DNA from: Candidatus Azambacteria bacterium
GTDB lineage: Bacteria > Patescibacteriota > Minisyncoccia > GWC2-36-17 > WO2-46-25
Reading direction: 5' to 3'
Length of the DNA stretch: 64,000 bases
Assembly (NCBI GenBank): GCA_016234725.1
Contig: JACRAK010000025.1
Location: forward strand, 5,713 to 69,712
Shown here: positions 3,551 through 49,118 of the stretch, piece after piece
Layout: each line of letters opens with the position of its first letter
How positions within the stretch are numbered: position 1 is the first letter of the stretch
Program-made: the position numbers and the translations under genes
Notes under the pieces: generated by a model
Seen by the model: the letters and a program-made list of their open reading frames with translations, nothing else
The model's database searches: none
Told to the model about the DNA's origin: nothing

Positions 3551-3836
3551 GCCACCTTAGCTCAGTTCACCCTCCTAAATTTTGTGGAGCAAAACTTTGG
3601 AGGGTAAAGAGCAACTGTTTCTTGCCCGCCCATCTTTTTATGCCGATGTAGCTCAGTGGTAGAGCAACTGTTTTGTAAACAGTAGGTCGTCGGTCCGATC
3701 CCGACCATCGGCTCCCGTTTTGTCTGAAGCGTAGCGAAGTTACAAAACGCAGTCCAGCGAAGTCGTGGCTCACGGAGCATAAAAGATAGGCGGGTGAATA
3801 AACAGTAGGTCTTCGGTTCAAATCCGAAAGGTGGCT
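3551..3836 (+). pseudogene. Split/interrupted tRNA-like gene: 5' piece 3551-3566, D-stem and anticodon 5' strand 3609-3618, 3' piece 3802-3836, enclosing an intact tRNA-Thr
   Basis: Acceptor halves GCCACCT (3551-3557) and AGGTGGC (3829-3835) are perfectly complementary. The 3' piece has an anticodon stem, V-loop and canonical T-arm (TTCGG-TTCAAAT-CCGAA). The D-loop carries a 35-nt hairpin (3570-3604), and the anticodon-loop position is filled by about 185 nt that include tRNA-Thr. Confidence 0.4.
3642..3713 (+). tRNA. tRNA-Thr (anticodon UGU)
   Basis: Cloverleaf read by hand: acceptor GCCGATG/CATCGGC, D-arm GCTC-AGTGGTA-GAGC, anticodon stem ACTGT/ACAGT with loop TTTGTAA, and T-arm GTCGG-TCCGATC-CCGAC. 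The T-loop has an unusual C at position 55. Flanked by 18-bp inverted repeats at 3624-3641 and 3777-3794. Confidence 0.8.
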
Positions 3837-14846: not shown

Positions 14847-14892
14847 CCAATTACCTGTATAATATGCTATAGCATATTATACAGGTAATTGG
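14847..14892. repeat. 46-nt perfect palindrome containing TGTATAAT on both strands
   Basis: CCAATTACCTGTATAATATGCTATAGCATATTATACAGGTAATTGG read directly. It shares the 13-mer TATACAGGTAATT with 54766-54778. Confidence 0.6.
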
Positions 14893-48977: not shown

Positions 48978-49086
48978 GGCTGTCACTCGTAATTCCTTCT
49001 TTTATCTTAACGGAAGAGCAGCCCTTCATTAATTATTTATATACATGGGCGTGAGCGGATTAAAGAAGGAATTACGAGTGACAGCC
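48978..49086. repeat. Copy 1 of a repeated structured element (25-bp perfect terminal inverted repeat closing a conserved core)
   Basis: GGCTGTCACTCGTAATTCCTTCTTT ... AAAGAAGGAATTACGAGTGACAGCC. The core (TTTTATCTTAAC...GCAGCCCTTCATT...GGGCGTGAGCGGATTAAAGAA) is shared with 59201-59334. Confidence 0.7.
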
Positions 49087-49118
49087 AAGCAAAACAATTT
49101 TATTATCACATTTCACAT

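Follow-up and report, generated by a model that had tools for sequence, protein, structure and literature searches.

A repeated intergenic palindrome of Candidatus Azambacteria, probably the inner hairpin of a non-autonomous MITE

An earlier, sequence-only reading of a 64-kb stretch of Candidatus Azambacteria DNA (hereafter the window) had singled out a repeated intergenic hairpin with a covarying closing stem and had taken it for a structured RNA, not a MITE. We examined the two copies in the window together with a larger collection of related copies, and the evidence points to the opposite assignment: the feature is probably the internal palindrome of a non-autonomous MITE of about 175-210 bp that occupies intergenic sites in Candidatus Azambacteria and close Patescibacteria, and whose stem arms recombine or template-switch with each other. 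The family displays the hallmarks of a MITE, with transposon-type ends, target duplications and both filled and empty sites; its core is also found inverted in place, and its copies are randomly oriented. Because the stem is the inner palindrome of a mobile element with a flipping centre, DNA recombination explains its paired changes better than an RNA gene does.

In the architecture that we propose, a full unit would consist, from the outside in, of a 7-bp target duplication, the 15-bp terminal repeat CTTTGAATTACGAAA, a spacer of 13-28 nt, a stem of about 30 bp and an asymmetric conserved core of about 50 nt; beyond the core the stem returns, and after it come another spacer, the terminal repeat TTTCGTAATTCAAAG and the other copy of the target duplication. 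The stem would be made up of 20 variable base pairs and 10 conserved ones, the latter including a T·T mismatch. The second copy in the window is such a complete unit, inserted between sufBD and sufS.

The two window copies and their family

Copies had been claimed at 48978-49086 (copy 1) and 59201-59334 (copy 2), and we found both of them there; their stems are the two longest inverted repeats that an inverted-repeat finder detects in the window. The closing repeat had been described as 25 bp long. An inverted repeat is indeed present in both copies, but its arms measure 29 nt, with 97% complementarity in copy 1 (48978-49006/49058-49086) and 93% in copy 2 (59201-59229/59306-59334). The window contains exactly two occurrences of each core block that had been called conserved (TTCTTTTATCTTAAC, GGAAGNGCAGCCCTTCATT and GGGCGTGAGNGGATTAAAGAA), where chance would give 0.01-0.12. 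The T·G position reported for the copy 2 stem is present, and the inner stem of both copies contains a conserved T·T mismatch (CTTTTATC/GATTAAAG). The outer arms of the two copies differ, as had been stated, but to call them completely different was an overstatement, since about 8 of 18 positions are shared between the two arms. The folding energy of both copies lies about 10-11 standard deviations below that of shuffled sequences, on either strand.

Copy 1 lies where the sequence-only reading had placed it, between divergent genes for a UvrD/PD-(D/E)XK helicase-nuclease (minus strand) and Obg (plus strand). On the plus strand its 5' arm (48978..49006) begins with 19 copy-specific nucleotides and ends with the conserved inner arm TTCTTTTATC (48997-49006), which is kept across the family. 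The core of 51 nt (49007..49057) comprises TTAAC, GGAAGAGCAGCCCTTCATT (49012-49030), an AT-rich loop and GGGCGTGAGCG (from 49047), and the 3' arm (49058..49086) consists of GATTAAAGAA plus its own copy-specific part. Because no terminal repeats are recognisable around copy 1, it looks like an old relic of which only the palindrome is left. The only ORF over it is a mechanical ORF of 79 aa on the minus strand, and we rejected a small peptide gene on either strand, as neither frames nor start codons are preserved across copies.

Two relatives of this locus differ in the placement of their hairpins. In L068, whose Obg is 87% identical, the arms are homologous to those of copy 1 and the element is found on the opposite strand, beside the helicase gene instead of obg. 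L069, with an Obg of 91% identity, has two hairpin units upstream of obg (L069:1-48 and 164-288); the unit that occupies the site of window copy 1 has arms that are unrelated and pair poorly, and the upstream unit has arms homologous to those of copy 1. A sigma-70-like site is also seen at 49078-49106 (GTGACA, 17 nt, TATTAT; 10/12 matches), with its -35 box contributed by the copy-specific 3' arm of copy 1 and its end 13 nt upstream of the obg start codon. This promoter-like site may serve obg, as a single anecdotal case.

Copy 2 is a complete unit of 207 bp between sufBD and sufS, and because both genes are on the minus strand it is antisense to the sufBD-sufS operon. On its left lies the target-site duplication TGTTTAT (59157..59163), 3 nt from the sufS start codon, followed on the plus strand by the left terminal inverted repeat TTTTGCGTTACGAAA (59164..59178; family consensus CTTTGAATTACGAAA), the 5' arm of the closing stem (59201..59229), a core of 76 nt (59230..59305), the 3' arm (59306..59334) and the right terminal inverted repeat TTTCGTAATTCATAG (59356..59370). 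The right target-site duplication TGGTTAT (59371..59377) is 6/7 identical to the left one and overlaps the sufBD stop codon. The core corresponds to that of copy 1 with an additional 9-bp stem-loop (59235-59256) inserted after TTAAC.

An exact-pattern scan of species-representative genomes yielded 25 loci, all of them in Patescibacteria and the majority under the label Candidatus Azambacteria; a single genome contributed as many as 11. The Obg protein of the window itself also carries a Candidatus Azambacteria annotation. A metagenome scan added 42 further loci, most of them in groundwater from Hainich H41. From 20 copies we built a covariance model that retrieved 67 full copies in about 543 kb, 53 of which are distinct; the window holds just two. 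The units are small and non-coding, 160-210 bp long (287 bp for a double copy described below), and reading frames are broken from copy to copy. Scans of viral contigs for phage carriage were negative, and a phage-borne element was rejected on this basis. A full-text literature search found no description of the palindrome family, which is apparently undescribed.

Termini, target duplications and insertion sites

The units are bounded by 15-bp terminal inverted repeats, CTTTGAATTACGAAA on the left and TTTCGTAATTCAAAG on the right. These are conserved among copies and sit 13-28 nt beyond the stem. Terminal repeats conserved in this way, the MITE pattern, had been named beforehand as the refutation of the RNA reading, and this pattern was found, outside the stem. 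The terminal motif has 66 approximate matches in about 543 kb; 42 of them are found no further than 80 nt from a hairpin, all pointing outward. The motif is not enriched in the window, where a few weak matches occur besides those at copy 2 and where the only close matches flanking a hairpin (0 and 2 mismatches) are on the two sides of that copy. We therefore rejected TTTCGTAATTCAAAG as a general promoter motif, as it shows no enrichment in the window and flanks only copy 2 there.

About half of the copies have a terminal repeat at one or both ends; several keep both, and the repeats are perfect in L039 and L045. Exact 7/7 direct repeats flush with the termini were found in L045 (TTTATGA), L036 (TATAATA) and L020/L057 (TGTATTA), and target duplications matching at 6/7 positions in L058 and in window copy 2; other copies, presumably older, gave no clear duplication. 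Conserved terminal repeats together with 7-bp target duplications contradict the claim that the feature is a structured RNA and not a MITE. One locus, L020:1062-1348 (= L057:7640-7926), contains two hairpin units head to head with an overlap of 7 nt. A single pair of terminal repeats plus the exact 7-bp duplication TGTATTA enclose both hairpins, and the double unit has therefore transposed as one piece.

Comparison of related loci revealed five cases in which one locus is filled and its counterpart is empty. The L021/L039 pair is reciprocal, with flanks that are 94-97% identical, and the other pairs are L027/L003, L034/L010 and L037/L063. In every pair the inserted block includes the spacers and at least one terminal repeat; the insert boundaries fall 0-18 nt from the terminal repeats, and one insert is without the right repeat. 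Several insertions split tightly coupled genes, which in the empty allele have a few nucleotides between the stop codon of one and the start codon of the next, and the sufBD-sufS insertion of window copy 2 resembles these gene-splitting insertions of other loci. A search for an autonomous element with the same termini found no convincing pairs of terminal repeats 0.3-4 kb apart in about 560 kb of collected loci.

The Correia elements (CREE) of Neisseria are small and non-coding, carry terminal inverted repeats and target-site duplications, and are present in dozens of intergenic copies. They insert beside or between genes, are consequently co-transcribed as hairpins, and differ in presence or absence between relatives. 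The Azambacteria element resembles these and other bacterial MITEs as a small non-coding intergenic unit with terminal repeats, target duplications and presence/absence polymorphism. Unlike Correia elements, it is most conserved internally and not terminally, its target duplication is 7 bp and not TA, it has a 30-bp internal stem whose outer 20 bp are copy-specific yet complementary, and its core inverts in place. It also differs in its host, a reduced-genome Patescibacterium, and no parent insertion sequence was found in the roughly 560 kb of collected loci. For a MITE it is unusual to find a hyper-conserved asymmetric core together with arms that drift freely and still pair perfectly. This small mobile element family occurs in very small genomes with tight operons, yet it sits within the junctions of essential operons, sufBD-sufS among them.

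Stem pairing, core inversion and the case for an RNA

The covariation that had been claimed is real, and it was upheld in the larger alignment. Among the 53 distinct copies, 98.4% of the stem pair cells are standard, compared with 78% after shuffling and 46-53% with partners slid; of the 30 closing-stem pairs, 23 have changed on both sides, with which RNAalifold agrees, and the number of cells with a both-sided change is 411 as against 96 in shuffles. As claimed, closing stems are not common to the copies: each has its own arms, and identical arms occur in no pair of non-orthologous copies. In the family as a whole the arms represent divergent forms of a single consensus, GCCGCCATCGCCTTCAATT. 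We rejected the possibility that the variable arms are pre-existing target palindromes on account of this shared consensus and of conservation that decays gradually outward.

Covariation of this strength favours a co-opted structured RNA, an alternative in which the inserted hairpin and core would work in transcripts and both pairing and core would be kept by selection at the RNA level. We regard this alternative as unlikely, and the same holds for the roles that such an RNA might have, as a processing site for RNase III or another nuclease, a stability or insulator element, or a site for an RNA-binding protein. The types of base pairs argue against it. Watson-Crick pairs make up 95.2% of the outer 20 pairs, G·T 2.3%, A·C 1.0% and other combinations 1.5%, and 27 of the 53 copies have 20/20 perfect Watson-Crick outer pairs; a wobble fraction of only 2.3% is at odds with a fast-evolving RNA helix, and the spectrum is that of duplex DNA. 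In favour of an RNA, G·T exceeds A·C on the plus strand by 24 to 10, so that plus-strand wobble is more frequent than minus-strand wobble. The bias is weak, a slight hint of a single-stranded plus form, and we rejected it as proof of an RNA because an early ratio of about 10 to 0 fell to 24 to 10 with 53 copies. Also compatible with an RNA are one inner pair that varies between G·U, A-U and G-C, the tolerance of stem-loops of variable length at a fixed junction position, the persistence of the hairpin after the terminal repeats have decayed, a core that is more conserved than the flanks at loci common to relatives, and the location of copies at operon junctions, for example sufBD-sufS, where they must be transcribed.

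The behaviour of the core weighs on the other side. In L047 relative to L025/L046, in L052 relative to L009/L013 and in L041 relative to L018/L067, its asymmetric sequence has flipped in place, the arms being unchanged and the flanks collinear; this amounts to 3 of about 11 same-locus groups. The youngest copies, L039 and L045, have arms that are identical at 17 of 19 positions and cores of opposite orientation relative to the spacers. The core thus inverts between the arms, and the arms therefore interact as DNA inverted repeats. Relative to the flanking genes, 19 copies are antisense to both neighbours, 12 are sense to both and 13 are mixed (6 between divergent and 7 between convergent genes); orientation with respect to neighbouring genes is random. 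Inversion in place between relatives and random orientation both contradict the earlier exclusion of a MITE, and the three inverted groups and the 19 antisense copies likewise speak against a co-opted RNA. A link between orientation and GC skew was not significant (33 to 19, p = 0.07); an early count of 21/27 had become 33 to 19, and we rejected such a bias.

Searches for features of an RNA gene gave negative results. The sequence-only reading had matched the element to no known RNA family and had called for a comparison with Rfam; in agreement with it, neither copy matched any of the 4227 models of Rfam 15 at the gathering score, and permissive scans returned only generic matches to plant and animal miRNA long hairpins, far below the cut-offs. 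Known RNA families were rejected on the basis of the gathering and permissive Rfam scans of both copies and of a second element, D, described below. Neither a sigma-70-type promoter nor an intrinsic terminator was found in the conserved unit, and this result, together with wobble pairs that are rare and only weakly strand-biased, counts against an RNA gene and also against an inserted hairpin that functions as an RNA. The element shares with Rfam structured RNAs a long closing helix with compensatory changes, a multi-part conserved core and a variable stem-loop at a fixed junction, but differs from them in that its orientation is not conserved, wobble is nearly absent, transposon hallmarks are present and no model matches. 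Small self-cleaving ribozymes, SRP-like RNA and Y RNA, considered on the strength of sequence motifs, were rejected because no model matches, and a retron msr/msd was rejected for the same reason and because there is no adjacent reverse transcriptase. An integron attC site was also rejected; R'/R'' boxes are absent, and attC has conserved ends and a variable centre, the opposite of what is seen here.

We favour the reading of the stem as the inner palindrome of a MITE, in which the arms would behave as inverted repeats of DNA and undergo recombination or template switching between themselves. Exchange between the arms would flip the core and would copy a change in one arm onto the other, so that the arms could drift at about the neutral rate and still stay complementary, mimicking RNA covariation without selection on an RNA. 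From established work on the correction of quasipalindromes and on recA-independent inversion between inverted repeats, the events that flip such a core, whether template switching or recombination, also make one arm a copy of its partner, and on this ground we infer homogenisation of the arms by template switching. L035:954-1063 and L040:2175-2284, whose flanks are 99.9% identical, differ in one 3' arm, where two substitutions at a distance of 4 nt disrupt pairing; possibly this arm was caught after a change that its partner arm had yet to receive.

Paired changes in a recombining DNA palindrome are indistinguishable from RNA covariation. The family exposes a trap for covariation-based RNA discovery, as a DNA palindrome whose arms exchange sequence passes shuffle and slide controls like a real RNA helix; here the trap is revealed by transposon ends outside the palindrome, by cores inverted in place and by the spectrum of pair types. 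Shared ends on a second family with an unrelated core (family D) were counted for the transposon reading, and against it we counted the constrained core and pairing, the G·T ratio of 24 to 10, the lack of an autonomous partner in the collected loci and the offset insert boundaries.

Core conservation, related systems and other palindromes

In same-locus pairs the conserved blocks are 95.8% identical, compared with about 77% for the 60-nt flanks and 56% for the outer arms, and copies common to diverged genomes have lost the terminal repeats and kept a perfect stem and core. Because a purely selfish relic should decay uniformly, we concluded that there is some constraint on the core and on pairing. 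The core is probably a cis-acting or protein-binding module, which would be kept uniform by exchange between copies and/or selection at the level of the family. Such exchange would homogenise the core and stop at the heterologous arms, and it could explain part of the conservation pattern. The near-identity of the core across species could reflect family-level selection for mobility, horizontal spread or a host function. At two loci a 16-bp palindromic module replaces CGGAAGCG and the orthologues are canonical, which fits exchange between copies or site-specific insertion.

A further alternative, which we consider possible but improbable, starts from the MITE and adds a host function: the core and inner stem would form a recognition site for a protein, as RNA, ssDNA or cruciform DNA, under purifying selection at dozens of loci of reduced Patescibacteria genomes. 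It is suggested by a core that is far more conserved than the flanks and the terminal repeats, unlike in a purely selfish relic. If it were true, the copies could serve throughout the genome as sites of RNA processing or as insulators where operons meet, or could be invertible elements that switch slowly; should the core turn out to be a binding site, a new cis-acting module could come to light.

It is very unlikely that the family is an inverton at many loci, with a recombinase acting at TTCTTTTATC/GATTAAAGAA to flip a core that carries an orientation-dependent signal. This explanation draws on the conserved inner inverted repeat around a conserved asymmetric segment, on the presence of both orientations at loci common to relatives and on the young, near-identical copies L039 and L045, whose cores differ in orientation relative to the outer frame. 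The element does share with invertons such as fimS and the Bacteroides invertible promoters the inverted repeats around a short segment found in both orientations. However, flips were seen only between lineages that are about 80-90% identical, by comparison of assemblies, and 16 of 16 locus pairs with at least 97% identical flanks, from independent assemblies, agree in orientation. A programmed switch is weakened by this agreement, and we rejected a fast phase-variable switch because there are no flips between near-identical assemblies. In addition, no sigma-70-like promoter was detected in the core, the repeats are mostly copy-specific, and the 20-bp variable outer arms would have no role in such a model and yet are kept perfect.

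Dispersed palindromes of other bacteria offer a partial comparison. Like the RAYT-mobilised REP/REPIN sequences, the element forms dispersed intergenic palindromes with long hairpins in which structure is kept over exact sequence, but REPINs have conserved arms and a variable spacer, the reverse of the Azambacteria element (arms 56% majority frequency, centre 96%), and they have neither the terminal repeats nor the target duplications that are present here. BIME-1/RIP elements of enterobacteria (inverted REPs around an IHF site) are likewise intergenic and multi-copy, with inverted repeats and a conserved AT-rich centre; the Azambacteria element differs in that no IHF consensus WATCAANNNNTTR was seen by eye in its core, its arms are copy-specific and it has transposon ends. 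Least credible of all is an ssDNA hairpin element that moves in the manner of REP/REPIN or IS200/IS605 ends, with its plus strand recognised by an HUH-type enzyme and the outer 15-bp repeats belonging to a separate element that is a frequent nesting host: it would account for a structure kept while the stem sequence varies, the conserved stem mismatch, the weak plus-strand wobble excess, the common nesting of small palindromic modules at fixed positions (module B at the T·T mismatch and the 16-bp palindrome at the junction) and the half or so of copies without terminal repeats, but 5 of 5 recent insertions carry at least one terminal repeat, the target-site duplications indicate DDE-type transposition, and orientation is not biased with respect to GC skew.

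A copy of the second element family, D, of about 123 bp, lies on the plus strand at 55833..55955 (stem 55828-55960) between convergent genes. It is bounded by the terminal-repeat variant CTGCGAATTGCAAAA / TTTTGCAATTCGCAG, both repeats having the same four departures from the 15-bp consensus, and it contains an unrelated core of 95 nt. D copies in L036, L049, L054 and L058 have target duplications of 6-7 bp, and an Rfam scan of the D element found no known RNA.

Two modules are nested within copies of the main family. One, of about 80 nt, interrupts the conserved inner stem precisely where the T·T mismatch lies and consists of GCCCCGTC, an AT-rich loop, GACGGGATTGC, a TGTTTGTGTGCC..GGACAAACAG hairpin and GGAA. 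It was seen at L003:50-241, L034:2026-2224, L054:13140-13341 (= L058:544-745) and L063:11600-11800, either in the 5' arm or reverse-complemented in the 3' arm, and a relative of it follows GGAAGC in L005, L017, L023 and L065. The other is a perfect 16-bp palindrome, TCCGCCAGCTGGCGGA (variant TCCGTCAGCTGACGGA), which takes the place of CGGAAGCG in the cores of L008, L011, L013, L027, L039, L046 and L055; it is also found elsewhere (L012:3731, L030:1900 and L064:6565-6634), once in tandem.

Many other perfect palindromes occur in these genomes, some with a zero-length loop, and because these have no loop they cannot be RNA hairpins. An intergenic stretch of the window (14847-14892) is a perfect palindrome of 46 bp without a spacer (CCAATTACCTGTATAATATGCTA / TAGCATATTATACAGGTAATTGG). 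Another repeated family consists of ATCACAAACTCACGC, a loop of 0-4 nt and GCGTGAGTTTGTGAT; its window copy (62587-62620) is a perfect 34-bp palindrome, and further copies are present at L036:3657 and 4290, L058:1629, L064:7135 and L066:1277. At many loci we also observed intergenic hairpins with perfect stems of 15-21 bp, tiny loops and A/T tracts on both sides (for example L013:412-454, L006:3820-3859 and L011:5249-5282), which resemble unusually long bidirectional terminators.

Two observations in the window concern tRNA-like sequences. Rfam calls a tRNA on the minus strand at 54669-54740 with 41 bits and three non-canonical acceptor pairs, ARAGORN makes no call there, and the site adjoins a 31-nt imperfect inverted repeat at 54559-54630. 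Between the genes for tRNA-Thr and tRNA-Tyr, where neither tRNA tool calls a gene, a segment of 29 nt (3799-3827) is 83% identical to the part of tRNA-Thr that extends from the anticodon to the T arm (3676-3704).
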